A stretch of 64,000 nt of DNA from a phage (GCA_026209155.1 GCA_026209155.1_3056.1); one strand, 5' to 3'. Positions 1,782-23,805 are shown, numbered from the stretch's first letter. Made by a program: numbers and translations. Notes: a model not told the origin generated them from the letters alone.

Positions 1782-4046
1782 TCATAATTTACAGGATGAA
1801 CAATCTTCAGCTTTTGGAGTTTCTATTTCATAATCATCAGTACCAGAACCATCACGGGTATTATGATAATAGAAATTTTTAATGCCATAATACCATCCGT
1901 ATAGCATGTCATCAATCATTATTGACATTGGAACCTTTCCTTTTGGAAAAATCTGCGGGTCATAGTATGTATTTGCTGAAGCTGATTGACATACCCATTT
2001 CAGCATAATAGCTACCTGTGTAAGATAAGGTTTATTACCTTTCTTAGCTAATTTCCACGTATAATCATATAGGTCTATGTTATGCTCAATATTGGGCACG
2101 ACTTGATTAAAGGAACCCTCTTTTGATTCTTTAACAGAGACTGGTCCACGTGGAGGCTCGATACCGTTTGTACTGTTAGAAACTTGGGAAGATGACTCAC
2201 ATGGCATAAGTGCTGATAATGTGCTATTACGGATGCCAAAGAGCTTAAGGTCTTCCCGCAGCGACGACCAGTCACAAACGTATTTTGGAGCTGCGATTTG
2301 GTCAATCTTTTTATTGTACCAGTCGATAGGTAATTCACCTCGAGACCAACGAGTGTCTGAATAATATTCGCAAGGTCCTTTTTCTTTGGCGAGCTTAATG
2401 GATGCTTTAATGAGTCCATACTGTAATCTCTCAAATAGTTCATGTGTTAAATCGTTGGCATCTTCATAAGAAGCAAAGTTACTTGCCAGCCAAGCTGCAT
2501 AGTTTGTAACACCTACACCGAGGTTACGACGCTTTTTAGCTTTTTCTGCTTCAGGAACTGGATATCCTTGGTAATCCAAAAGATTATCAAGAGCACGAAC
2601 TTGAACTTCTGCCAATTCATTAATTTTATCTTGGTCTTGCCAGTCAAAATTATCTAGTACGAATGCAGAGAGAGTGCACAATCCAATTTCAGCATCAGGA
2701 CTATTCACATCATTTGTTGGAATAGCAATTTCACAACACAAGTTACTCTGGCGAATAGGTGCCTTTTCACGAATAAACGGAGTATAGTTATTCGTATTAT
2801 CAATGAACTGTACATAAATCCTTGCTGTTCCTGAACGTTCAGTCATGAGCAATTCAAATAGTTCACGGGCTTTAATACGCTTTTTACGAATATTAGGGTC
2901 TTTTTCTGCCGCTTCGTATAATTCACGGAAACGGTCTTGGTCTTTAAAATAAGAATAATAAAGCTCTCCACCCATTTCATGTGGACTGAACAAAGTAATG
3001 TAGTCGTTCTTTCCAAAACGTTCCATCATTAGGTCATTCAGTTGAACGCCATAATCCATATGACGAATGCGGTTTTCTTCTACGCCTTTGTTATTTTTCA
3101 AAACGAGAAGATTTTCAACTTCCAAATGCCAAATAGGATAATAAGCAGTAGCAGCGCCGCCACGAATTCCACCCTGTGAACATGATTTAACTGCAGTCTG
3201 AAAATGTTTCCAAAAAGGAATAACACCGGTATGGCGTACTTCACCCATGCCAATCTTAGAACCTTCGGCACGAATCATACCAACGTTAATACCAATTCCA
3301 GCACGTTTGGAGATATATTCAACAATTGAAGCGGAAGCCTTATTGATAGACTTCAATGAATCTCCTGCCTCAATAACAACACATGAACTAAACTGTCGAG
3401 TCGGAGTACGGCAACCAGCCATAATAGGAGTTGGCAATGAAATCTGTCGAGTAGATACTGCTTCATAAAAACGGATAACATGTTTTAATCTATCAACAGG
3501 TTCGTCTTGATGCAATGCCATTCCAATAGCCATAAATGCAAACTGTGGAGTTTCATAAATTTGACCAGTGGTTTTATCTTTAACGAGATATTTTTCTTTT
3601 AATTGCATCGCCCCGGAATAAGTAAATTCCATATCCCGCTCGTGCTTAATTTTTGATTCTAAAAATGTAATTTCTTCTGCAGAATATTTTGACAACAATT
3701 CAGGGTCATATTTACCTTCATTTACACAGTAAGAAATATGGTCAATAAATGAACGTGGTTCATATTGTCCGTAAACATGCTTACGAAGAGCAAACATTAA
3801 ACAGCGTGCAGCTACATATTGATAATCAGGCTCTTCAACTGAAATAGAATTCGCAGCAGCCTTAATTACAATGGTTTGAATGTCATCAGTGGTCATTCCA
3901 TCACGGAGATATGATTTAATATTTTCATATAATTCATAAGGATCTACAGATGTTCCTTCGGCTGCCCAAGATAAAACTTTAATAATTTTTTGCGGGTCAA
4001 AGCTCTGAGAAACACCACTACTTTTGATAACATTAATTAATTGCAT
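1782..4046 (-). CDS. nrdA: Ribonucleotide reductase large subunit
   Basis: 754 aa, same length as T4 NrdA; class I RNR alpha motifs; end signature CSSCKL-like. Confidence 0.95.
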   Translation of the reverse strand: MQLINVIKSSGVSQSFDPQKIIKVLSWAAEGTSVDPYELYENIKSYLRDGMTTDDIQTIVIKAAANSISVEEPDYQYVAARCLMFALRKHVYGQYEPRSFIDHISYCVNEGKYDPELLSKYSAEEITFLESKIKHERDMEFTYSGAMQLKEKYLVKDKTTGQIYETPQFAFMAIGMALHQDEPVDRLKHVIRFYEAVSTRQISLPTPIMAGCRTPTRQFSSCVVIEAGDSLKSINKASASIVEYISKRAGIGINVGMIRAEGSKIGMGEVRHTGVIPFWKHFQTAVKSCSQGGIRGGAATAYYPIWHLEVENLLVLKNNKGVEENRIRHMDYGVQLNDLMMERFGKNDYITLFSPHEMGGELYYSYFKDQDRFRELYEAAEKDPNIRKKRIKARELFELLMTERSGTARIYVQFIDNTNNYTPFIREKAPIRQSNLCCEIAIPTNDVNSPDAEIGLCTLSAFVLDNFDWQDQDKINELAEVQVRALDNLLDYQGYPVPEAEKAKKRRNLGVGVTNYAAWLASNFASYEDANDLTHELFERLQYGLIKASIKLAKEKGPCEYYSDTRWSRGELPIDWYNKKIDQIAAPKYVCDWSSLREDLKLFGIRNSTLSALMPCESSSQVSNSTNGIEPPRGPVSVKESKEGSFNQVVPNIEHNIDLYDYTWKLAKKGNKPYLTQVAIMLKWVCQSASANTYYDPQIFPKGKVPMSIMIDDMLYGWYYGIKNFYYHNTRDGSGTDDYEIETPKAEDCSSCKL

Positions 4047-4363
4047 AAGTCCTCAACTTGAAAATCGTCTTTAAACAATCGGTTAACTATATGAGCTATT
4101 ATATCACCATGACACGGCTTTGGTTTACATGTGCATCCTAGCCTCATTCCACGTAAAGGCTCTAAATGTGCTTTAGTTATTTCTCCGGATTTAATTCGAC
4201 GTATAAAATCTTTTTTGAATAATTCAATGGCAGCCTCCCGGCTGCCAGCATCTTTACCGACGTAATTTCCCCAAAATGTACCACGGTGAATATTAACATC
4301 AAAGTCGGATTTATATTTATTCACTACCCGACATAGACGGCCCGCGTGGTAATAATTCGTCAT
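4037..4363 (-). CDS. Hypothetical small protein upstream of nrdA (nrdA.1-like), Cys/His cluster [11 protein letters not shown]
   Basis: 108-aa ORF, same strand, start overlaps next ORF, stop overlaps nrdA start. Confidence 0.55.
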
Positions 4364-4592
4364 ATTGTTTTTCCGTTAAAACAGTAATATCATAATAACA
4401 ATCAGAAGAAGTTTTAACTGTAGAAATTTTATTATCAAAATACTCACGAGTCATTTTATGAGTATAATATTTTTTGCCATAAATGATAATAGGCTGATTT
4501 GGTCCTGGAACTTCTAACTCACTTGGGTTAGGAAGTGTAAAAAGAACTACACCAGAAGTATCTTTAAATCGTAAAATCATATATCCTCGCAA
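4317..4592 (-). CDS. Hypothetical small protein (nrdA.2-like)
   Basis: 91-aa ORF in operon context between td exon 2 and nrdA. Confidence 0.5.
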
Positions 4593-4603
4593 TTAATAAT
4601 TAA

Positions 4604-4915
4604 TTACACCGCCATTTTTCCTTTAATAGGAGGGTGTGATTCGTAACCTTTAAGAACGAAATCTTTAGGCCTGAGTTTAAGAACATATTTTAATTGTTCT
4701 TTAGTAGAAAGATAACGGAATTTATAAGGCAATCCGCTTATTACCAGTTCACAAAGCTCTTTAGGTTCACGACGTAAAATTTCTTTACATTGTTCTACGT
4801 GATTCATATAGATATGAGTATTACCGCCAGAAAATATCAAATCTCCAGGAATAAGATTACACATCTTAGCTACAATATGAACTAACGCAGCATATGATGC
4901 AATATTAAATGGAAG
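4604..4915 (-). CDS. td: Thymidylate synthase exon 2 (C-terminal 103 aa, begins LPFNIASY)
   Basis: TS motif LPFNIASYAALVHIVA; the track ATG at 4916-4918 is the last three intron nucleotides, not a real start. Confidence 0.9.
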   Translation of the reverse strand, partial: LPFNIASYAALVHIVAKMCNLIPGDLIFSGGNTHIYMNHVEQCKEILRREPKELCELVISGLPYKFRYLSTKEQLKYVLKLRPKDFVLKGYESHPPIKGKMAV

Positions 4916-5931
4916 CATTATGTTCAGATAAGGTCGTTAATCTTACCCCGGAATTATATCCAGCTGCATGTCACCATGCAGATCAGACTATATCTCCAAC
5001 TTGTTAAAGCAAGTTGTCTATCGTTTCGAGTCACTTGACCCTACTCCCCAAAGGGATAGTCGTTAGGCATTTATGTAGAACCAATTCCATTTATCAGATT
5101 TTACACGATAAGTAACTAATCCAGACGAAATTTTAAAATGTCTAGCTGCATCTGCTGCACAATCAAAAATAACCCCATCACATGAAATCTTTTTAATATT
5201 ACTAGGCTTTTTACCTTTCATCTTTTCTGATATTTTAGATTTAGTTATGTCTGAATGCTTATGATTAAAGAATGAATTATTTTCACCTGAACGATTTCTG
5301 CATTTACTACAAGTATAAGCAGAAGTTTGTATGCGAACACCGCACTTACAAAACTTATGGGTTTCTGGATTCCAACGCCCGTTTTTACTTCCGGGTTTAC
5401 TGTAAAGAGCTTTCCGACCATCAGGTCCAAGTTTAAGCATCTTAGCTTTAACAGTTTCAGAACGTTTCTTAATAATTTCTTCTTTTAATGGATGCGTAGA
5501 ACATGTATCACCAAACGTTGCATCAGCAATATTGTATCCATTAATTTTAGAATTAAGCTCTTTAATCCAAAAATTTTCTCGTTCAATAATCAAATCTTTC
5601 TCATATGGAATTTCTTCCAAAATAGAACATTCAAACACATTACCATGTTTGTTAAAAGACCTCTGAAGCTTTATAGAAGAATGGCATCCTTTTTCTAAAT
5701 CTTTAAAATGCCTCTTCCATCTCTTTTCAAAATCTTTAGCACTTCCTACATATACTTTATTGTTTAAAGTATTTTTAATCTGATAAATTCCGCTTTTCAT
5801 AAATACCTCTTTAAATATAGAAGTATTTATTAAAGGGCAGTCCTACAATTTAGCACGGGATTGTCTACTAGAGAGGTTCCCCGTTTAGATAGATTACAAG
5901 TATAAGTCACCTTATACTCAGGCCTCAATTA
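4916..5931 (-). mobile_element. Group I self-splicing intron in td (1016 nt) carrying the I-TevI gene
   Basis: Exon 1 ends ...CTTGGGT; intron begins TAATTGAGGCCTGAGTATAAGG (minus strand), ends ...AATG before exon 2 CTTCCATTTAAT; matches remembered T4 td intron ends and length. Confidence 0.9.
5063..5800 (-). CDS. Intron-encoded GIY-YIG homing endonuclease I-TevI (245 aa)
   Basis: N-terminal GIYQIKNTLNNKVYVGSAKDFEKRWKRH GIY-YIG motif; NUMOD3-like and Zn-finger region (CKCGVRIQTSAYTCSKC); lies inside the td intron. Confidence 0.92.
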   Translation of the reverse strand: MKSGIYQIKNTLNNKVYVGSAKDFEKRWKRHFKDLEKGCHSSIKLQRSFNKHGNVFECSILEEIPYEKDLIIERENFWIKELNSKINGYNIADATFGDTCSTHPLKEEIIKKRSETVKAKMLKLGPDGRKALYSKPGSKNGRWNPETHKFCKCGVRIQTSAYTCSKCRNRSGENNSFFNHKHSDITKSKISEKMKGKKPSNIKKISCDGVIFDCAADAARHFKISSGLVTYRVKSDKWNWFYINA

Positions 5932-6480
5932 ACCCAAGAAAACATCTACTGATCGTTGATACCACTGCAAATCCAAATAGCCATTACGCACATTAAACTG
6001 ATAGAACATATGACAAGGCGGTAATGCCATTTGCTTGAGTTCAGCTGGATTCCATGCTGAAACAACTTGACGTCTATCATTTGGCAGTTTTTTAATACGA
6101 TCAATAACTTCTACAATTTGGTCTACACCGCCAAAATCACGCCATTGTTTTCCATAAATTGGACCAAGTTCACCGCTATGGTATCCTAAATCTTTTGCTT
6201 GATTTTCGTAATTTTCATCCCAGACTGTTTTGCCTTGAATTAATGAATCATGCTGAATTAATCGTAAATCATTTACGTTAGTACTTCCTGACAAAAACCA
6301 TATTAGCTCAGCAATACAAGCTTTCCAGGCGAGCTTCTTAGTCGTTACTGCAGGAAAACCTTTAGTTAAATCCCAGCGTAATTTAGTACCGAACAAAGCA
6401 ATTGTTCCTGTGCCTGTTCGGTCATCGGTTTCATAGCCATTTTCAAAAATGTCTTTAATTAAATCTTGGTATTGTTTCAT
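5932..6480 (-). CDS. td: Thymidylate synthase exon 1 (N-terminal 183 aa, ends DVFLG)
   Basis: TS motifs (RTGTGT, active-site region PPCH); in-frame TAA is the first intron codon. Confidence 0.9.
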
Positions 6481-6525
6481 TTAGTACCTTATATAAATTA
6501 TAATACATTTTATGAAGCTAAATAA

Positions 6526-6885
6526 TCAATACGGTTTAGCATCAAATTTTCTTTCAATTTCAGGCGTGAAATACAATTCTTTACCGCGTTTGGAAAAGCG
6601 ACCAATAATATGATAATTATTCTCATCAAACGTAATATTGCCAATATCCATAGCTTTCAACCAAATATCGATATTTCTATCCAGTTTTATATCAAAATTC
6701 CAATACGGAGAACTATTACCGAAAATACTGCAAGCGGATTCAGTGAAACAACTACTATAAATCTTGTCTTTAGGAACTACTAATTGATAGACGCCTTTAA
6801 TAAACTGAGGACCCTGCCATTTTGGTTGTTTCGCGTCTTTTTCTAATAGAATAGGGTAATAATTAAAATTCATATTTTCCGCCAC
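6526..6885 (-). CDS. Hypothetical protein, 119 aa, between frd and td
   Basis: ORF in the frd-td interval; I remember frd and td as directly overlapping in T4, so likely an insertion. Confidence 0.5.
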   Translation of the reverse strand: MAENMNFNYYPILLEKDAKQPKWQGPQFIKGVYQLVVPKDKIYSSCFTESACSIFGNSSPYWNFDIKLDRNIDIWLKAMDIGNITFDENNYHIIGRFSKRGKELYFTPEIERKFDAKPY

Positions 6886-6893
6886 GTGTTATT

Positions 6894-7720
<827 letters not shown>

Positions 7721-7731
7721 ATCATCTCCAA

Positions 7732-8064
7732 TTAAAAAGGATCAGGAACGTATCCGCTAGCTTTAATCATTTTAATTAACGTTAACATTCCTTTGTTAAC
7801 TGCTCGTGAGATTTCATCAAAAGCTTCAGGATTAAAAAGTTCTAACACGCCCTTCTGAACTTTTAATTTACAGCCAACAATTTCTTCATCGCCTATAGTA
7901 AATTCATTACCACCAATTCCTCCGAAAAACTTAATTACACCAGTTAACTGTCTTCCACGAGAATATGGGTCGTGTGATAAATTAATATGAGTCACCCCGG
8001 GTACAGTTTTAAATTGGCAGCGAATGTTTACTTGGGAAATTCCAGTTACATGAATATCAGACAT
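7732..8064 (-). CDS. Hypothetical protein (frd.x-like)
   Basis: 110-aa ORF in same-strand array. Confidence 0.5.
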   Translation of the reverse strand: MSDIHVTGISQVNIRCQFKTVPGVTHINLSHDPYSRGRQLTGVIKFFGGIGGNEFTIGDEEIVGCKLKVQKGVLELFNPEAFDEISRAVNKGMLTLIKMIKASGYVPDPF

Positions 8065-13302: not shown

Positions 13303-16300
13303 ATGGCCGAGATTAAAAGAAAGTTCAGAGCAGAAGATGGTCTGGACGCAGGTGGTGATAAAATAATCAACGTAGCTTTAGCTGATCGTGCCGTAGGAAC
13401 TGACGGCGTTAACGTTGATTACTTAATTCAAGAAAACACAGTTCAACAATATGATCCAACTCGTGGATATTTAAAAGATTTTGTAATCATTTATGATAAC
13501 CGCTTTTGGGCTGCTATAAATGATATTCCAAAACCAGCAGGAGCTTTTAATAGTGTACGCTGGAGAGCATTACGTACTGATGCTAATTGGACAACTGTTT
13601 CATCAGGACCTTATCAATTAAAGTCAGGCGAATCAATTTCAGTTGATACTGCAGCTGGTAATGACATTACATTTACTTTACCATCTTCCCCAATTGATGG
13701 AGATACTATCGTTCTCCAAGACATTGGAGGAAAACCTGGAGTTAACCAAGTTTTAATTACCGCTCCGGTGCAAAGCATTGTAAATTTTAGAGGTCAGCAA
13801 GTACGATCAGTACTAATGACTCATCCAAAATCGCAGATAGTTTTAATTTTTAGTAATCGTCTGTGGCAAATGTATGTTGCTGATTATAGCAGAGAAGCTG
13901 TAGTCGTAACACCGGCAAGTCTTTATCAGGCGCAATCTAACGATTTTATCGTGCGCAGATTTACTTCAGCCGCGGCGATTAATATTAAACTTCCGAGATT
14001 TGCTAATCATGGCGATATTATTAATTTCGTCGATTTAGATAAACTAAATCCACTTTATCATACAATTGTTACTACATACGATGAAACTACTTCAATACAA
14101 GAAGATGGAACTCATTCCATTGAAGGCCGTACATCGATTGACGGTTTCTTGATGTTTGATGATAGTGAAAAATTATGGAGATTGTTTGACGGGGATAGTA
14201 AAGCACGTTTACGCATTATAACGACTAATTCAAACATTCGTCCAAATGAAGAAGTTATGGTATTTGGTGCGAATAATGGAACAACTCAAACGATTGAACT
14301 TCAGCTTCCAACTAATATTTCTGTTGGTGATACTGTTAAAATTTCCATGAATTACATGAGAAAAGGACAAACAGTTAAAATCAAAGCTGCCGGTGAAGAT
14401 AAAATTGCTTCTTCAGTTCAATTGCTGCAATTCCCAAAACGCTCAGAATATCCACCTGAAGCTGAATGGGTGACTGTTCAAGAATTAGTTTTTAACGGTG
14501 AAACTAATTATGTTCCAGTTTTACAGCTTGCTTATATTGAAGATTCTGACGGAAAATACTGGGTTGTACAGCAAAACGTTCCAACTGTTGAAAGAGTCGA
14601 TTCTTTAAATAATTCTACTAGAGCAAGATTAGGCGTAATTGCTTTAGCTACACAAGCCCAAGCTAACGTCGATTTAGAAAATTCTCCACAAAAAGAATTA
14701 GCAATTACTCCAGAAACATTAGCTAACCGTACTGCTACAGAAACTCGTAGAGGTATCGCAAGAATAGCAACTACTGCTCAAGTAAATCAGAACACTACAT
14801 TCTCTTTTGCTGATGACCTTATCATCACTCCTAAAAAGCTGAATGAAAGAACTGCTACAGAAACTCGTAGAGGTGTCGCAGAAATTGCTACGCAGCAAGA
14901 AACTAATGCAGGTACTGATGATACTACAATCATTACTCCTAAAAAGCTTCAAGCTCGTCAAGGTTCTGAGTCATTATCTGGTATTGTAACTTTTGTATCT
15001 ACTGCAGGTGCTACTCCAGCTTCTAGCCGTGAATTAAATGGTACGAATGTTTATAATAAAAACACTAATAATTTAGTTGTTTCGCCTAAAGCTTTGGATC
15101 AGTATAAAGCTACTCCAACGCAGCAAGGTGCAGTAATTTTAGCAGTTGAAAGTGAAGTAATTGCTGGACAAAGTCAGCAAGGATGGGCAAATGCTGTTGT
15201 AACGCCAGAAACGTTACATAAAAAGACATCAACTGATGGAAGAATTGGTTTAATTGAAATTGCTACGCAAAGTGAAGTTAATACAGGAACTGATTATACT
15301 CGTGCAGTCACTCCTAAAACTTTAAATGACCGTAAAGCAACTGAAAGTTTAAGTGGTATAGCTGAAATTGCTACACAAGTTGAATTCGACGCAGGCGTCG
15401 ACGATACTCGTATCTCTACACCATTAAAAATTAAAACCAGATTTAATAGTACTGATCGTACTTCTGTTGTTGCTCTATCTGGATTAGTTGAATCAGGAAC
15501 TCTCTGGGACCATTATACCCTTAATATTCTTGAAGCAAATGAGACACAACGTGGTACACTTCGTGTAGCTACACAGGTCGAAGCTGCTGCAGGAACATTA
15601 GATAATGTTTTAATAACTCCTAAAAAGCTTTTAGGTACTAAATCTACTGAAGCGCAAGAAGGTGTTATTAAAGTTGCAACTCAGTCTGAAACTGTAGCTG
15701 GAACGTCAGCAAATACTGCTGTATCTCCAAAAAATTTAAAATGGATTGTGCAGAGTGAACCTACTTGGGCAGCTACTACTCTGGTAAGAGGTTTTGTTAA
15801 AACTTCATCTGGTTCAATTACATTCGTTGGTAATGATACAGTTGGTTCAACACAGTCATTAGAATTGTACGAGAAAAATAGTTATGCAGTATCGCCATAC
15901 GAATTAAACCGTGTATTAGCAAATTATTTGCCGTTAAAAGCAAAAGCTGTAGATAGTAATTTACTGGATGGTCTAGATTCATCTCAGTTCATTCGTAGGG
16001 ATATTGCACAAACGGTTAATGGTTCACTAACCTTAACCCAACAAACGAATCTGAGTGCCCCTCTTGTATCATCTAGTACTGCTACGTTCGGTGGATCAGT
16101 TTCAGCAAATAGTACACTAACCATTTCTAATACTGGAACAGCAACTCGTCTGATTTTTGAGAAAGGACCTCAAACTGGAACGAACCCGGCTCAAACGATG
16201 ACAGTCAAAGTGTGGGGAAATCAATTTAGTGGTGAATCAGACACAACGCGTTCTACTGTATTTGAAGTTAGTGATGAAACGTCTAGTCACTTTTATTCTC

Positions 16301-17172
16301 AGCGCAATAAAGCTGGTAATATAACATTTAATATCAATGGTACAGTAACACCGATAAATGTGAATGCTTCAGGAACATTGAATGCGAATGGCGTTGCAAC
16401 ATTCGGTAGTTCAGTTACTGCTAATGGCGAATTTATCAGTAAATCGTCGAATGCTTTTAGAGCAATAAATGGTGATTACGGATTCTTTATTCGTAATGAT
16501 GGTGCTAACACCTATTTTATGCTTACTGCATCTGGTGATCAGACTGGTGGGTTTAATGGATTACGTCCATTATCAATTAATAATCAATCTGGTCAGGTTA
16601 CAATTGGTGAAAGCTTAATCATTGCCAAAGGTGCTACTATAATTTCAGGTGGTTTAACTGTTAACTCGAGAATTCGTTCTCAGGGTACTAAAACCTCTGA
16701 TTTATATACCCGTGCGCCAACATCTGATACTGTAGGATTCTGGTCAATCGATATTAATGATTCAGCCACTTATAACCAGTTCCCGGGTTATTTTAAAATG
16801 GTTGAAAAAACTAATGAAGTGACTGGGCTTCCATACTTAGAACGCGGTGAAGAGGTTAAATCTCCTGGTACGCTGACTCAATTTGGTAACACACTCGATT
16901 CGCTTTACCAAGATTGGATTACTTATCCAACGACCCCAGAAGCGCGCACCACTCGCTGGACGCGTACATGGCAGAAAACCAAAAATTCTTGGTCAAGCTT
17001 TGTTCAGGTATTTGATGGAGGTAACCCTCCTCAGCCATCTGATATCGGTGCTTTACCATCTGATAATGCTATAATGGGGAATCTTACTATTCGTGATTTC
17101 TTACGAATTGGTAATGTTCGCATTATTCCTGACCCAGTGAATAAAACGGTTAAATTTGAATGGGTTGAATAA
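13303..17172 (+). CDS. 34: Long tail fibre proximal subunit gp34
   Basis: 1289 aa, identical length to T4 gp34; repetitive fibre sequence. Confidence 0.95.
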   Translation: MAEIKRKFRAEDGLDAGGDKIINVALADRAVGTDGVNVDYLIQENTVQQYDPTRGYLKDFVIIYDNRFWAAINDIPKPAGAFNSVRWRALRTDANWTTVSSGPYQLKSGESISVDTAAGNDITFTLPSSPIDGDTIVLQDIGGKPGVNQVLITAPVQSIVNFRGQQVRSVLMTHPKSQIVLIFSNRLWQMYVADYSREAVVVTPASLYQAQSNDFIVRRFTSAAAINIKLPRFANHGDIINFVDLDKLNPLYHTIVTTYDETTSIQEDGTHSIEGRTSIDGFLMFDDSEKLWRLFDGDSKARLRIITTNSNIRPNEEVMVFGANNGTTQTIELQLPTNISVGDTVKISMNYMRKGQTVKIKAAGEDKIASSVQLLQFPKRSEYPPEAEWVTVQELVFNGETNYVPVLQLAYIEDSDGKYWVVQQNVPTVERVDSLNNSTRARLGVIALATQAQANVDLENSPQKELAITPETLANRTATETRRGIARIATTAQVNQNTTFSFADDLIITPKKLNERTATETRRGVAEIATQQETNAGTDDTTIITPKKLQARQGSESLSGIVTFVSTAGATPASSRELNGTNVYNKNTNNLVVSPKALDQYKATPTQQGAVILAVESEVIAGQSQQGWANAVVTPETLHKKTSTDGRIGLIEIATQSEVNTGTDYTRAVTPKTLNDRKATESLSGIAEIATQVEFDAGVDDTRISTPLKIKTRFNSTDRTSVVALSGLVESGTLWDHYTLNILEANETQRGTLRVATQVEAAAGTLDNVLITPKKLLGTKSTEAQEGVIKVATQSETVAGTSANTAVSPKNLKWIVQSEPTWAATTLVRGFVKTSSGSITFVGNDTVGSTQSLELYEKNSYAVSPYELNRVLANYLPLKAKAVDSNLLDGLDSSQFIRRDIAQTVNGSLTLTQQTNLSAPLVSSSTATFGGSVSANSTLTISNTGTATRLIFEKGPQTGTNPAQTMTVKVWGNQFSGESDTTRSTVFEVSDETSSHFYSQRNKAGNITFNINGTVTPINVNASGTLNANGVATFGSSVTANGEFISKSSNAFRAINGDYGFFIRNDGANTYFMLTASGDQTGGFNGLRPLSINNQSGQVTIGESLIIAKGATIISGGLTVNSRIRSQGTKTSDLYTRAPTSDTVGFWSIDINDSATYNQFPGYFKMVEKTNEVTGLPYLERGEEVKSPGTLTQFGNTLDSLYQDWITYPTTPEARTTRWTRTWQKTKNSWSSFVQVFDGGNPPQPSDIGALPSDNAIMGNLTIRDFLRIGNVRIIPDPVNKTVKFEWVE

Positions 17173-17180
17173 GAGGTATT

Positions 17181-18299
17181 ATGGAAAAATTTATGGCAGA
17201 GTTTGGACAAGGATATGTCCAAACGCCATTTTTATCGGAAAGCAATTCAGTAAGATATAAAATAAGTATAGCGGGTTCTTGCCCGCTTTCTACTGCAGAA
17301 GGACCATACGTTAAATTTCAGGATAATCCTGTTGGAAGTCAAACATTTAGCGCAGGACTTCATTTAAGAGTTTTTGACCCTTCTACAGGAGCATTAGTTG
17401 ATAGTAAGTCATATGCTTTTTCGACTTCAAATGATACTACATCAGCTGCTTTTGTTAGTTTCATGAACTCTTTGACGAATAATAGACTTGTTGCTATATT
17501 AACTAACGGAAAAGTTAATTTTCCTCCTGAGGTAGTATCTTGGATAAGAACCGCAGGAACGTCTGCTTTTCCATCTGATTCTGTATTGTCAAGATTTGAC
17601 GTATCATATGCTGCCTTTTATACTTCTTCTAAAAGAGCTATTGCATTGGAACATGTTAAACTAAGTAATAGAAAAAGCACAGATGACTATCAAACTATTT
17701 TAGATGTTGTATTTGATAGTTTAGAAGACGTTGGAGCTACAGGATTTCCTAAAAGAACATACGAAAGCGTTGAGCAATTTATGTCAGCGGTTGGTGGAAC
17801 TAATAACGAAATTGCACGTTTACCAACTTCATCCGCGATAAGTAAACTCTCTGATTATAATTTAATTCCTGGCGATGTTCTTTATCTTAAAGCACAGCTA
17901 TATGCTGATGTCGATTTACTTGCGCTTGGAACTACAAATATATCTATCCGTTTTTATGATGAATCGAATGGATATATTTCTTCAACACATGCTGAGTTTA
18001 CTGGACAAGCTGGGTCATGGGAATTAAAGGAAGATTATGTAGTTATTCCAGAAAATGCAGTAGGATTTACGATATATGCACAAAGAACTGCTCAAGCTGG
18101 TCAAGGTGGCATGAGGAATTTAAGCTTTTCGGAAGTGTCAAGAAATGGAAGTATTTCGAAACCTGCTGAATTTGGTATCAACGGCATTCGTGTTAATTAT
18201 ATCTGTGAATCTGCTTCACCTCCAGATATAATGGTACTTCCTACGCAAGCATCGTCTAAAGCTGGTAAAGTATTTGGGCAAGAATTTAGAGAAGTATAA
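17181..18299 (+). CDS. 35: Long tail fibre hinge protein gp35
   Basis: 372 aa as in T4; position after gene 34. Confidence 0.9.
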   Translation: MEKFMAEFGQGYVQTPFLSESNSVRYKISIAGSCPLSTAEGPYVKFQDNPVGSQTFSAGLHLRVFDPSTGALVDSKSYAFSTSNDTTSAAFVSFMNSLTNNRLVAILTNGKVNFPPEVVSWIRTAGTSAFPSDSVLSRFDVSYAAFYTSSKRAIALEHVKLSNRKSTDDYQTILDVVFDSLEDVGATGFPKRTYESVEQFMSAVGGTNNEIARLPTSSAISKLSDYNLIPGDVLYLKAQLYADVDLLALGTTNISIRFYDESNGYISSTHAEFTGQAGSWELKEDYVVIPENAVGFTIYAQRTAQAGQGGMRNLSFSEVSRNGSISKPAEFGINGIRVNYICESASPPDIMVLPTQASSKAGKVFGQEFREV

Positions 18300-18304
18300 A
18301 TTGA

Positions 18305-18330
18305 GGGAGCCTTCGGGTTCCCTTTTTCTT
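18305..18330 (+). terminator. Hairpin with UUCG loop plus U-tract after gene 35
   Basis: GGGAGCC-UUCG-GGUUCCC followed by TTTTTCTT. Confidence 0.6.
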
Positions 18331-18338
18331 TATAAATA
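18331..18338 (+). promoter_or_regulatory. Late promoter TATAAATA upstream of gene 36
   Basis: Exact TATAAATA 24 nt upstream of gene 36 ATG. Confidence 0.65.
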
Positions 18339-18361
18339 CTATTAAAATAAAGGGGCATACA

Positions 18362-19039
18362 ATGGCTGATTTAAAAGTAGGTTCAACAACAGGAGGCTCT
18401 GTCATTTGGCATCAAGGAAATTTTCCATTGAATCCAGCCGGTGACGATGTACTCTATAAATCATTTAAAATATATTCAGAATACAATAAACCACAAGCTG
18501 CTGATAACGATTTCGTTTCTAAAGCATCAGGTGGCACATATTTAAACAAAGTATCATTTAATGCAGGTGTACAAATCCCGTTTTCTAAAGACGGCGTAAT
18601 TCAAACAGGGAACATTAATGGTATTTTTCCTGGAGTTGATGATGGGGCCGATTTTACAGCAAACAACCTAGATATCGTTTCTTGGTATGGTGTTGGATTT
18701 AAATCTTCATCAGGTAATTCAGGATATACGATATCCATTAATACTCGTACAGGCACAATTAATACTAAAGGCGGTGTTTACGCCTCTGGACAAGTTCGTT
18801 CAGACATGGCTGCACCTGTTGCGGTTAACGATCTTACTCGTAAAGATTATGTTGATGGAGCAATAAATATTGTTACAGCAAACGCAAACTCTAGGGTATT
18901 ACGCTCTGGAGACACTATGACAGGAAATTTAACTGCGCCAAACCTTTTTTCACAGAATCCTGCGTCTCAACCTTCACATGTTCCACGATTTGATCAAATT
19001 GTTATTAAGGATTCTGTTCAAGATTTCGGCTATTATTAA
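18362..19039 (+). CDS. 36: Long tail fibre distal connector gp36
   Basis: 225 aa; position between 35 and 37. Confidence 0.9.
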   Translation: MADLKVGSTTGGSVIWHQGNFPLNPAGDDVLYKSFKIYSEYNKPQAADNDFVSKASGGTYLNKVSFNAGVQIPFSKDGVIQTGNINGIFPGVDDGADFTANNLDIVSWYGVGFKSSSGNSGYTISINTRTGTINTKGGVYASGQVRSDMAAPVAVNDLTRKDYVDGAINIVTANANSRVLRSGDTMTGNLTAPNLFSQNPASQPSHVPRFDQIVIKDSVQDFGYY

Positions 19040-19047
19040 GAGGACTT

Positions 19048-22000
19048 ATGGCTACTTTAAAACAAATACAATTTAAAAGAAGCAAAACTGCAGGAGCACG
19101 TCCTGCCGCTTCAGTATTAGCCGAAGGTGAATTGGCTATAAACTTAAAAGACCGCGTACTTTTTACTAAAGACGACCAAGGAAATATCATTGATCTTGGT
19201 TTTGCTAAGGGCGGTAGTATTGACGGGAATGTTATTCATAAAGGCAATTATAACCAAACTGGCGATTATACTTTAAACGGTACATTCACCCAGACTGGTA
19301 ATTTTAATTTAACCGGTATTGCTCGAGTAACTCGTGATATTATTGCTGCTGGGCAGATTATGACTGAAGGCGGAGAACTTATTACAAAAAGTTCAGGAAC
19401 GGCACACGTTCGTTTTCATGATTCCGCCGACCGTGAACGCGGTATTATTTTTTCTCCTGCTAATGACGGTTTAACTACACAAGTAATTAACATCAGAGTT
19501 CAAGATTACAAAGCCGGTTCAGAAAGCACTTTCGCTTTTAATGGAAATGGTTTGTTTTCTTCACCAGAAGTTTTTGGGTGGAAATCTGTATCAACTCCGG
19601 TAATTTATACCAATAAAGTTATCACCAATAAAAAAGTTAAAGATGATTATGACATCTATTCGATGGCAGACAATGTTCCATTGTCTGAAAGCACTACTGC
19701 TATTAATCATCTTCGTGTTATGCGTAATGCAGTTGGTTCTGGTATTTTCCATGAAGTTAAAGATAATGATGGAATAACATGGTATAGTGGAGATGGATTA
19801 GACGCTTATCTTTGGTCATTTACTTGGAGCGGCGGAATTAAATCAAGTCACTCAATTTCCATCGGTTTAACACCCGGACCTAAGGATTACTCAATATTAG
19901 GACCGTCTAGTATCGCTTTAGGAGATAATGATACTGGATTTAAATGGCATCAAGACGGATATTATTTCAGTGTTAACAATGGCACAAAAACGTTTTTATT
20001 TAGTCCAAGCGAAACAACTAGCCTAAGAAAATTTATAGCTGGATATTCTACTAACGGAACCGATTTAACTACTCCTCCAACTGAAAATTATGCTCTTGCT
20101 ACTGTAGTGACATACCATGATAATAACGCGTTTGGGGATGGTCAGACTCTTTTAGGATATTATCAAGGCGGTAACTATCATCATTATTTCCGCGGCAAGG
20201 GCACTACAAACATTAATACTCATGGCGGTTTGTTAGTTACTCCAGGCAATATTGACGTTATTGGTGGTTCTGTTAATATCGATGGTAGAAATAATAATTC
20301 AACTTTAATGTTTAAAGGCTATACCATGGGTCAAAGCTCCGTTGATAACATGTATATAGCTGTTTGGGGAAATACTTTTACTAATCCAAGTGAAGGCACC
20401 CGTAAAAATGTCATGGAAATTTCTGATGATATTGGATGGATGCATTATATTCAACGTAATAAAGATAATACGGTTGAAGCCGTGTTAAATGGTCAACAAA
20501 CAATTAATGAAAATATTATTGCGAAAAAGGATATTTGGGTTGACCGAGCAGTTCATACCATTGGCGAAATCACTACAAATGCTGTTAATGGTCTTCGTAT
20601 TTGGAATAATGATTATGGAGCCATTTTTAGACGTTCAGAAGGCAGTCTTCATATTATTCCAACTGCTTACGGTGAAGGTAAAAATGGTGATATCGGTCCA
20701 CTTCGCCCGTTTAGTATAGCTTTAGATACTGGTAAAGTTACTATTCCAGATTTACAATCAAGTTACAATACGTTCGCGGCAAACGGCTATATTAAATTTA
20801 CTGGTCATGGCGCTGGCGCTGGTGGTTATGATATTCAATATGTTCAAGCGGCTCCTATTTTCCAGGAAATCGATGATGATGCTGTAAACAAATATTATCC
20901 GATTGTTAAGCAAAAATACCTTCAAGGTAAAGCAGTTTGGTCTTTAGGTACTGAAATTAATTCAGGTACATTCGTGATACACCATATCAAAGAAGATGGA
21001 ACACAGGGCCATACATCAAGATTTAATGCTGATGGTACAGTTAACTTCCCGGATAACGTTCTGGTCGGCGGTGATATTAACATGAAAGGCTTGCTGACTT
21101 TTGATGCCGGACGTTTAGGATCACGAGATTATTTTAAATTTAACCATTGGGGTGATAGTAATAATGCTCGTGATAACATCATCCAGTTAGAAGATAGTCA
21201 AGGCGCCCATTTTTTCACTGAACGTACTTTAGCGACAGGTGCAATTAAAACTCGTTTCTTTGGCGAAACATTTACTGATGGTACATTATACCTAAATCAG
21301 ATGAATAATAGCTCTGAACAATTCCATATCAATAATTGGGGAAATTCAGAAGTTGGTCGCGCGGCAGTGATGGAAGTCGGTGATTCCAAAGGTTATCACT
21401 TCTATACAGAACGCAGGACAGATAACAGTTTGACGTTTGATGTTGCTGGCAATTTTACTGTGCATGGATCTGGCGGGATCACTATCAAAAACTCTGCTGG
21501 TGCACGACATATCTGGTTTAGAGATGATAGTGATGCGGAAAAGGCTGTTATCTGGGCTACAGATGATGGTATTTTACATATACGAAATAATTATGGGGGT
21601 TCATTTAGTCATCACTTCCGGGGTGCAATGATTCTAGCGGGAGAGCGTGTTCCATATAATAGTGAATACGCTCTTATCCGTGGTAATATTTCCGGTGGTG
21701 CATGGGTAGACTGGCGAGATCGTCCGGCTGGATTGTTGGTAGACTGTCAGGACTCACGAAATCAAGCATATAACATTTGGAAAGCTACTCATTGGGGCGA
21801 ACAGCACCTTGCGGCGATGGGTGTTCATGCTGGCGGTGGTAATCCTCATGTTGCATTGCATGTGGGTGGGAGTGATTATGCATTTGCAGTTAACGGTGAT
21901 TTTACTGCTGGTGCTGCTGTATATTGTAACGACGTTTATATTCGTTCTGACCGTCGTCTGAAAATTAATGTTGAAGACTACGAAGAGAATGCGGTGGATA

Positions 22001-22299
22001 AGGTAAATAAACTCAAAGTTAAAACCTATGATAAAGTTAAATCTCTTTCTGACCGCGAAGTTATCGGCCATGAGATTGGTATTATCGCACAGGATTTGCA
22101 AGAAGTATTACCGGAAGCTGTTAGCACCTCTAGTGTCGGATCTCAGGATAACCCAGAAGAAATTTTAACAATTTCAAACTCTGCTGTGAACGCGCTTTTA
22201 ATTAAGGCCATTCAGGAAATGAGCGAAGAAATTAAAGAATTGAAAACGCCTCTCTTTACTAAAATTGCTCGCAAAATTAGTAAATATTTTAAATTCTAA
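19048..22299 (+). CDS. 37: Long tail fibre distal subunit gp37 with C-terminal intramolecular-chaperone-like domain
   Basis: 1083 aa; N-terminus conserved with fibre proteins; C-terminal about 117 aa after the SDRRLK motif. Confidence 0.9.
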   Translation: MATLKQIQFKRSKTAGARPAASVLAEGELAINLKDRVLFTKDDQGNIIDLGFAKGGSIDGNVIHKGNYNQTGDYTLNGTFTQTGNFNLTGIARVTRDIIAAGQIMTEGGELITKSSGTAHVRFHDSADRERGIIFSPANDGLTTQVINIRVQDYKAGSESTFAFNGNGLFSSPEVFGWKSVSTPVIYTNKVITNKKVKDDYDIYSMADNVPLSESTTAINHLRVMRNAVGSGIFHEVKDNDGITWYSGDGLDAYLWSFTWSGGIKSSHSISIGLTPGPKDYSILGPSSIALGDNDTGFKWHQDGYYFSVNNGTKTFLFSPSETTSLRKFIAGYSTNGTDLTTPPTENYALATVVTYHDNNAFGDGQTLLGYYQGGNYHHYFRGKGTTNINTHGGLLVTPGNIDVIGGSVNIDGRNNNSTLMFKGYTMGQSSVDNMYIAVWGNTFTNPSEGTRKNVMEISDDIGWMHYIQRNKDNTVEAVLNGQQTINENIIAKKDIWVDRAVHTIGEITTNAVNGLRIWNNDYGAIFRRSEGSLHIIPTAYGEGKNGDIGPLRPFSIALDTGKVTIPDLQSSYNTFAANGYIKFTGHGAGAGGYDIQYVQAAPIFQEIDDDAVNKYYPIVKQKYLQGKAVWSLGTEINSGTFVIHHIKEDGTQGHTSRFNADGTVNFPDNVLVGGDINMKGLLTFDAGRLGSRDYFKFNHWGDSNNARDNIIQLEDSQGAHFFTERTLATGAIKTRFFGETFTDGTLYLNQMNNSSEQFHINNWGNSEVGRAAVMEVGDSKGYHFYTERRTDNSLTFDVAGNFTVHGSGGITIKNSAGARHIWFRDDSDAEKAVIWATDDGILHIRNNYGGSFSHHFRGAMILAGERVPYNSEYALIRGNISGGAWVDWRDRPAGLLVDCQDSRNQAYNIWKATHWGEQHLAAMGVHAGGGNPHVALHVGGSDYAFAVNGDFTAGAAVYCNDVYIRSDRRLKINVEDYEENAVDKVNKLKVKTYDKVKSLSDREVIGHEIGIIAQDLQEVLPEAVSTSSVGSQDNPEEILTISNSAVNALLIKAIQEMSEEIKELKTPLFTKIARKISKYFKF

Positions 22300-22335
22300 C
22301 AACAAGGGGGAAATGCCCCCTTTGGAGTATAAATT

Positions 22336-23118
22336 ATGGCAGTAGTTGGAGTTCCTGGCTGGATTGGAAGTTCAGCCGTAAATGAAACGGGTCAGCGCTG
22401 GATGAGTCAAGCAGCTGGTCAATTAAGATTGGGTGTTCCTTGCTGGATGAGTCAATTTGCAGGTCGCTCAAGAGAAATAATTCACACGCTTGGAGCAGAC
22501 CATAACTTCAATGGCCAATGGTTCCGAGATAGATGTTTTGAGGCAGGTAGTACACCTATAGTGTTTAATATCACTGGAGATTTAGTATCATATTCTAAAG
22601 ATGTTCCTTTATTCTTCATGTACGGAGATACACCGAATGAATATGTTCAACTGAATATACATGGTGTAACGATTTTTGGCCGTGGCGGGAATGGCGGTAG
22701 CAATAGTCCTGGCTCAGCTGGGGGTCATTGTATTCAAAATGATATTGGTGGGAGACTAAGAATTAATAATGGTGGAGCTATTGCAGGCGGCGGTGGCGGC
22801 GGTGGAGGCGGATATTATTCTCCTTTTTCACAAATGAGATTGACCTTTGGCGGCGGCGGTGGGCGTCCGTTTGGTGCACCTGGCGGATCTATTGATATGC
22901 AATCAGGCGCGACTGGCGGTACTATTTCTGCACCTGGCTCAGGATCCGTGAATGGTATTTATAATGGTGGAAACGGTGGTGAAGTAGGTTCCGCGGGAGG
23001 TAGATGCAATATTCGCGGTCAAGGATCTGAATATAATGGCGGCGATGCTGGTTATGCTGTTATAGGGTCTGCTCCAACGTGGATAAATGTTGGAGCAATA
23101 TATGGTCCAAGAGTATAA
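22336..23118 (+). CDS. 38: Receptor-recognising adhesin gp38, long Gly-rich-motif type
   Basis: 260 aa with several poly-Gly motifs ([29 protein letters not shown]) between variable segments; immediately after gene 37. Confidence 0.85.
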
Positions 23119-23148
23119 TTTGAATAAATATCCTTAAAAGGAGGGTCT

Positions 23149-23805
23149 ATGGCAGCACCTAGAATATCATTTTCGCCCTCTGATATTCTGTTGGGTGTTC
23201 TAGATCGCTTGTTCAAAGATAACGCTACCGGGAAAGTTCTTGCTTCCCGGGTAGCTGTCGTAATTCTTTTATTTATGATGGCGATTGTTTGGTATAGGGG
23301 AGATAGTTTCTTTGAGTACTATAAGCAATCAAAGTATGAAACATACAGTGAAATTATTGAAAAGGAAAGAAATGCACGCTTTGAATCTGTCGCCCTGGAA
23401 CAACTCCAGATAGTTCACATATCATCTGAGGCAGACTTTAGTGCGGTGTATTCTTTCCGCCCTAAAAACTTAAACTATTTTGTCGATATTATAGCATATG
23501 AAGGAAAATTACCTTCAACAATAAGTGAAAAATCACTTGGAGGATATCCTGTTGATAAAACTATGGATGAATATGCAGTTCATTTAAATGGACGTCATTA
23601 TTATTCCAACTCAAAATTTGCTTTTTTACCAACTAAAAAGCCTACTCCCGAAATAAACTACATGTACAGTTGTCCATATTTTAATTTGGATAATATCTAT
23701 GCTGGAACGATAACCATGTACTGGTATAGAAATGATCATATAAGTAATGACCGCCTTGAATCAATATGTTCTCAGGCGGCCAGAATATTAGGAAGGGCTA
23801 AATAA
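23149..23805 (+). CDS. t: Holin T
   Basis: 218 aa as in T4; single N-terminal TM segment and large periplasmic domain. Confidence 0.9.
   Translation: MAAPRISFSPSDILLGVLDRLFKDNATGKVLASRVAVVILLFMMAIVWYRGDSFFEYYKQSKYETYSEIIEKERNARFESVALEQLQIVHISSEADFSAVYSFRPKNLNYFVDIIAYEGKLPSTISEKSLGGYPVDKTMDEYAVHLNGRHYYSNSKFAFLPTKKPTPEINYMYSCPYFNLDNIYAGTITMYWYRNDHISNDRLESICSQAARILGRAK

Follow-up and report, generated by a model that had tools for sequence, protein, structure and literature searches.

What finishes the C-terminus of the distal long tail fibre subunit encoded at this locus, and does the protein carry a chaperone of its own there that is cut off once its work is done? The question is raised by gene 37 in the window, by which the whole analysed stretch of 64,000 nucleotides is meant. 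Gene 37 lies in a T-even long-tail-fibre cluster that occupies positions 13303..23805 on the plus strand and contains the following genes:

13303..17172, plus strand: gp34, 1289 aa
17181..18299, plus strand: gp35, 372 aa
18362..19039, plus strand: gp36, 225 aa
19048..22299, plus strand: gene 37, long tail fibre distal subunit precursor, 1083 aa, 118.8 kDa (open reading frame and PHROG 1699)
22336..23118, plus strand: gene 38, T2/S16-type adhesin, 260 aa (Pfam GP38 6.1e-71, Gp38_N 1.1e-20, PHROG 2056 8e-112)
23149..23805, plus strand: holin t, 218 aa

The identity of gp37 is given by PHROG 1699 ('long tail fiber protein distal subunit'), which matched residues 1-1078 with E = 0. The flanking 24 kb show 96-97% nucleotide identity to Tequatrovirus genomes (e.g. 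EcNP1, BP32). The segment comprising gp37 and gp38 is more mosaic than these flanks, with 86-92% identity over 68-96% of its length in the best-matching records, among which vB_EcoM_SP1, NBG2, and FL33 are in the lead. Scans of the whole window against Rfam (at gathering thresholds) and for tRNAs gave no matches. In the middle of gp37 (residues 450-557, window 20395..20718) the Pfam family Gp34_trimer was matched with an E-value of 8e-7, just over the cutoff, while T4 gp37 matched the same family at 2e-5, just under it. The proximal and distal half-fibres therefore have a module in common.

From the sequence of gene 37, a preliminary description had proposed that its last 117 or so residues, starting at Ser967, resemble the C-terminal chaperone domains of other phage fibres. 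The residue numbers and coordinates of that proposal are exact on the translation of the reading frame: IRSDRRLKINVEDYEE starts at residue 965, Ser967 is encoded by TCT at 21946..21948, and 117 residues run from this serine to the C-terminus, with the stop codon at 22297..22299. The features on which the analysis turns are these:

19048..21945, plus strand: predicted mature gp37, residues 1-966, 105.6 kDa, ending in ...VYCNDVYIR (placed by alignment to the S16 site DLNVS^SDRRIKK)
21943..21948, plus strand: predicted scissile bond Arg966^Ser967, codons CGT TCT (Ser invariant in the alignments of 44 and 45 sequences)
21946..22296, plus strand: residues 967-1083 (117 aa, 13.2 kDa), the intramolecular chaperone domain, whose release is predicted (Pfam S74, AlphaFold, Foldseek)
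21946..22122, plus strand: core Pfam Peptidase_S74 match, residues 967-1025 (Pfam profile)
21961..21963, plus strand: Lys972, codon AAA, at Ser+5, predicted activator of the Ser hydroxyl (invariant; spacing as for Ser1264/Lys1269 of T5 pb1)
22177..22287, plus strand: long C-terminal helix, residues 1044-1080 (DSSP helix 145-181 of the 184-aa AlphaFold fragment)

The profile comparison with peptidase S74/endosialidase chaperone domains that had been suggested as a check gave a clear match. PF13884 (Peptidase_S74, 'Chaperone of endosialidase') was found at residues 967-1025 with an E-value of 9.8e-15 when the whole of gp37 was searched and 1.2e-15 when the search was limited to its C-terminal 149 aa, scoring 55-58 bits against a curated gathering cutoff of 22. 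The match covers positions 1-57 of the 58 in the profile, and Ser967 is position 1. The domain forms the extreme C-terminus of the protein (the last 117 of 1083 residues), and this C-terminus is common to many PHROG tail-fibre families. By tblastn it was detected in 1528 phage records, which extend from T-even to T5-like phages and to streptococcal PblB/hyaluronidase proteins. A collection of 5.8 billion proteins yielded 63 relatives, all of which contain PF13884 except one short partial sequence. Among the sequences of the PDB, phmmer found S16 gp37 (6f45_A) at 8e-12, with AIYCRDLNVSSDRRIKK aligned to AVYCNDVYIRSDRRLKI, together with MyRF (7dc3) and a tail fibre (8jov). With a profile built from the homologues, the 6f45_A match improved to 2.5e-15 and the GA-1 neck-appendage chaperone (3gud_A) was added. 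The deposited 3gud_A chain, which is the released GA-1 chaperone, begins exactly at the aligned SDERHK and thus at the serine. The 6F45 construct, with the C-terminal chaperone of gp37 from Salmonella phage S16, is that of Dunne et al. 2018 (Structure). At the level of sequence, the resemblance of the gp37 C-terminus to S74 domains is far beyond chance. A minus-strand reading frame of 115 aa with a TTG start (21754..22101), which overlaps the chaperone domain, gained no support and was treated as spurious because the plus frame is strongly conserved at the protein level.

The Ser and Lys to which catalytic roles are assigned in the chaperones of the K1F endosialidase and T5 pb1 are in place at the domain boundary. 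In alignments of 44 homologues, and of 45 once T2 was included, S967, D968, R970, L971, K972, and N974 are invariant, in line with the conserved serine that had been proposed for the start of the domain. Moreover, 6f45, 8jov, and 3gud have SD..K motifs with which S967 and K972 line up. In the T5 fibre pb1 the scissile bond is Thr1263-Ser1264, the catalytic roles are assigned to Ser1264 and Lys1269, and the S1264A mutation abolishes the cut (PMC4690869).

The predicted structure points in the same direction. Residues 900-1083 (184 aa) were modelled with AlphaFold as a monomer, the T2 row being left out, and pLDDT was 80-95 across most of the chaperone and 66-77 in the last ~15 residues. The chaperone in the model consists of short helices, two beta-hairpins, and a terminal helix of 37 residues. 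This helix (residues 1044-1080) would be the coiled-coil former in the trimer, by analogy to solved intramolecular chaperones, which have a trimeric coiled coil at their centre (PMC4690869). When the model was compared with the PDB by Foldseek, the matches with E < 0.1 were the intramolecular chaperone (ICA) of MyRF (7dc3, E 9e-6, probability 1.0), followed by the K1F endosialidase (3gw6) and GA-1 (3gud). These were the only matches at that level, and all of them are intramolecular chaperones.

A close known parallel is found in phage S16, where a 113-aa chaperone cuts itself off at DLNVS^SDRRIKK so that the docking surface for gp38 is exposed (PMC7917993; PMC6851490). As in S16, a T-even gp37 is followed here by a gp38 adhesin that would dock through three Trp residues, the chaperone is of similar length (113 versus 117 aa), and S^SDRRIKK aligns with R^SDRRLKI. 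The tip before the cut differs, being DLNVS in S16 and DVYIR here, such that the P1 residue is Ser in S16 and Arg in the present protein, which in addition has an extra basic C-terminal tail of 17 aa. For T2 and T6, a passage in PMC3157838 reports C-terminal cleavage of gp37, citing Drexler et al. 1986. Together with S16 (PMC7917993), this agrees with the earlier suggestion that such processing is on record for T2-type phages. The T2 junction ...NVYIR^SDIRLK shares with the present one the general form VYIR^SD.RLK, and a gp38 adhesin lies downstream in T2 as well. Nevertheless, T2 gp37 (AP018813) is longer, at 1341 aa, its chaperone has 99 aa and ends in KELESKLM, and the chaperone region is just 21-44% identical to that of the present gp37 per 50-aa block. 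A nearly identical site, DVYIR^SDGRLKI, was predicted for the Yersinia phages fPS-2/-65/-90 by Salem et al. 2021 (PMC7917993). There, and in PST gp37, the C-terminal 140 aa are ~65% identical to the present protein; a single substitution (G to R) separates the motifs, and the tip domain before them is unlike.

More distant systems have the same chaperone and other clients. The chaperones of T5 pb1 and K1F belong to the same Pfam family and have the Ser/Lys(+5) pair and the fold of helix and beta-hairpins, whereas their clients are a receptor-binding domain of bullet shape or the stalk of a sialidase, and cleavage is not followed by recruitment of an adhesin. The gp37 chaperone has a low sequence identity to the K1F endosialidase (3GW6), at 12%. 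The eukaryotic MYRF ICA (7DC3) is of the same family and comes first among the fold matches (E 9e-6; TM, normalised to the target, 0.62-0.67), but it acts at the ER membrane, from which it frees a transcription factor, and has no role in a virion fibre.

T4 stands apart from these systems. A Pfam search of T4 gp37 (NC_000866) gave Collar at 7e-11 and Phage_fiber at 1.8e-7 and no match to S74, whereas in the window gp37 S74 is present and neither Collar nor Phage_fiber was matched. T4 gp38 is not an adhesin and has a weak, sub-threshold match to the tail-fibre assembly family Caudo_TAP (E 0.076). What the gp38 chaperone does in T4-type fibres falls to the S74 domain in the present fibre. The preliminary description had set this gp37 against T4 gp37 as one that depends on external chaperones. 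That contrast stands insofar as T4 gp37 is without the S74 domain; as a statement about external chaperones it is only partly apt. Use of the general chaperone gp57A is still assumed for T2/S16-type fibres, and therefore 'no external chaperone' would overstate the case.

The profile match, the conserved residues, the modelled fold, and the neighbouring genes are thus concordant. Given the Pfam match, the invariant Ser and Lys, the fold, the alignment to S16, the gp38 gene downstream, and a T4 protein without the domain, the C-terminal chaperone reading of gp37 is supported. With a probability of about 90%, residues 967-1083 are an intramolecular chaperone of the peptidase S74/endosialidase type that cuts itself off at Arg966^Ser967 and frees the base on which gp38 docks. 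By homology to the systems described above, the chaperone would trimerise via its terminal helices, and would nucleate and template the folding of the distal fibre tip. Once a correct trimer has formed, Lys972 would activate the hydroxyl of Ser967 and each chain would cut its own Arg966-Ser967 bond. The fragment of 13.2 kDa would then dissociate and the mature gp37 of 105.6 kDa would stay. The exposed trimeric base (...DVYIR) would be the docking surface for one gp38, which would insert Trp9, Trp22, and Trp37 of its N-terminal helices.

It is conceivable, at long odds, that the S74-like domain aids folding and is yet retained in the virion, where it would cap the fibre structurally. In T5 and K1F a trimer sensor, which forms the oxyanion hole, consists of an Arg from a neighbouring chain and an Asp. 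These residues could not be assigned upstream in gp37 by sequence alone: D962, at -5, is conserved with S16, but residues 900-966 contain only two Arg (R904 and R966), and neither is at a position comparable to the upstream sensor of T5/K1F. Cleavage of gp37 in this phage is itself inferred from its homologues, which also leaves room for a retained domain. Against such a cap, neither the catalytic Ser nor the Lys is lost or varies, gp37 of T2 and T6 is reported to be cleaved (PMC3157838), and the chaperone would sit on the gp37 base where gp38 docks in S16 (PMC7917993; PMC6851490).

Equally improbable is that no autoproteolysis takes place and that a different protease, of the host or the phage, cuts the C-terminal segment away. 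The original T2 work by Drexler in 1986 reportedly showed processing and did not identify the protease, and the data computed here do not discriminate between the two routes. What speaks for a self-cut is the behaviour of homologous domains, which cleave themselves as recombinant proteins and are blocked by a Ser-to-Ala change (T5 pb1, PMC4690869), as well as the description of the S16 chaperone as autocleaved (PMC7917993) and the strict conservation of the Ser/Lys pair in gp37 homologues. A chance motif or a decayed, functionless remnant is refuted by the Pfam match (E ~1e-15), the confident fold prediction with its Foldseek matches, and the identity to relatives over residues 951-1083 (100% to ESh27, 90-96% to SP1/FL33), and next to no weight is left for it.

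The chaperone domain of gp37 is real but, like its predicted cut, of a kind already well known for T2-type phages, and nothing substantively new is added by its presence here. No new biological question arises: publications on T2, S16, and the fPS phages already describe the mechanism and this very type of site. There are practical consequences nonetheless. In annotation, residues 1-966 should be recorded as the mature fibre and its DVYIR end as the surface on which gp38 docks. In engineering, tail-fibre swaps or recombinant fibres of the present phage need residues 967-1083 to be kept in the expression construct.

The adhesin that would use the exposed base is encoded by the next gene, which starts 36 nt downstream of gp37. 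Its attachment domain was located as follows:

22336..22461, plus strand: gp38 N-terminal attachment domain, residues 1-42, with Trp9, Trp22, and Trp37 (Gp38_N; Trp positions in the sequence)

Compared by eye, the N-terminus of T2 gp38 has Trp at the positions corresponding to W9, W22, and W37. Three Trp residues of gp38 are known to dock to the gp37 base (PMC6851490, PMC7917993).

Comparison of the two genes with their closest relatives (window 19048..23118) revealed a pattern of conserved and variable blocks. In ESh27, SP1, and FL33, identity is 90-100% at the N-terminus of gp37, in its chaperone domain, and in the N-terminal ~100 aa of gp38. Specifically, the last three alignment blocks of gp37 (residues 951-1083) are those in which identity is complete with Shigella phage ESh27 (Mosigvirus), and for the gp38 N-terminal stretch alone (~100 residues) the range over the three phages is 96-100%. 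The mosaic parts are the gp37 shaft, where identity per block falls to 42-66% versus the closest relatives, and the hypervariable region of gp38, where it goes down to 23-65% in the same three phages. Lock-and-key co-inheritance of the gp37 C-terminus with the gp38 N-terminus is known (PMC3157838), and the joint conservation of these two parts here is an instance of it.

The junction that separates gene 37 from gene 38 contains a stable hairpin (22293..22328, core 22304..22322) with the form AAGGGGG-AAATG-CCCCCTT, a dG of -14.8 kcal/mol, and a z of -2.0. In the minimum-energy fold its outer stem pairs the gp37 stop region with the GGAG ribosome-binding site of gp38. At the same intergenic place T2 carries another hairpin (AGAGGGC-TTCG-GCCCTCT). 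The hairpin may serve translational coupling or mRNA stabilisation. It was the sole notable feature in a promoter and terminator scan of 21500..23300, in which promoter-like sites were not above those in shuffled sequence.

The last residues of gp37 form a cationic amphipathic tail that extends beyond the usual end of the S74 domain:

22246..22296, plus strand: Ox2/RB14-type basic amphipathic tail TPLFTKIARKISKYFKF, residues 1067-1083 (matches in phage records)

A 45-aa query ending in this tail was covered to at least 80% by 225 phage records, including Ox2, RB14, RB3, HP3, and phiC120, and the tail itself was found in ESh27, SP1, and FL33. The tail is thus common across T-even records, and a private frameshift as its origin was ruled out. 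Other endings occur as well, namely KELESKLM in T2 and ENKLLRERLAAIEAKLG in the closest metagenomic relatives (P0001/P0002). Such differing chaperone endings among relatives imply a mosaic junction inside the last helix. That the tail does more than lengthen the coiled coil and lets the freed 13-kDa fragment act again after cleavage, for instance in membrane association or in feedback on assembly of the fibre, seems very doubtful.

A further arrangement of these modules was seen in a contig of an E. coli assembly (GCA_031535085.1, ABMKHH010000064.1). At 6001-6912 it encodes a chimera of 303 aa (P0005), in which the gp38 N-terminal domain and first glycine-rich motifs (residues 1 to ~155) are followed by a gp37-like tip and a full S74 chaperone of its own. 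Because only one sample carries it, this chimera may have arisen by recombination or by an assembly error. Immediately upstream of it is a gp37-like fibre of 1140 aa (2542-5964) that is also S74-ended, and the two chaperone-coding stretches are just 68% identical at the DNA level. The neighbouring genes look non-T-even and include an S78 protease-capsid fusion and a pb9-like distal tail protein. Downstream of the chimera (6950-7856) there are three tandem paralogous genes of ~100 aa each, for which Pfam gave no matches and which have in common W..FDIPNGW and glycine-rich stretches. Two of the three have YFKF at or near the C-terminus, which may be compared with SKYFKF, the last residues of gp37.
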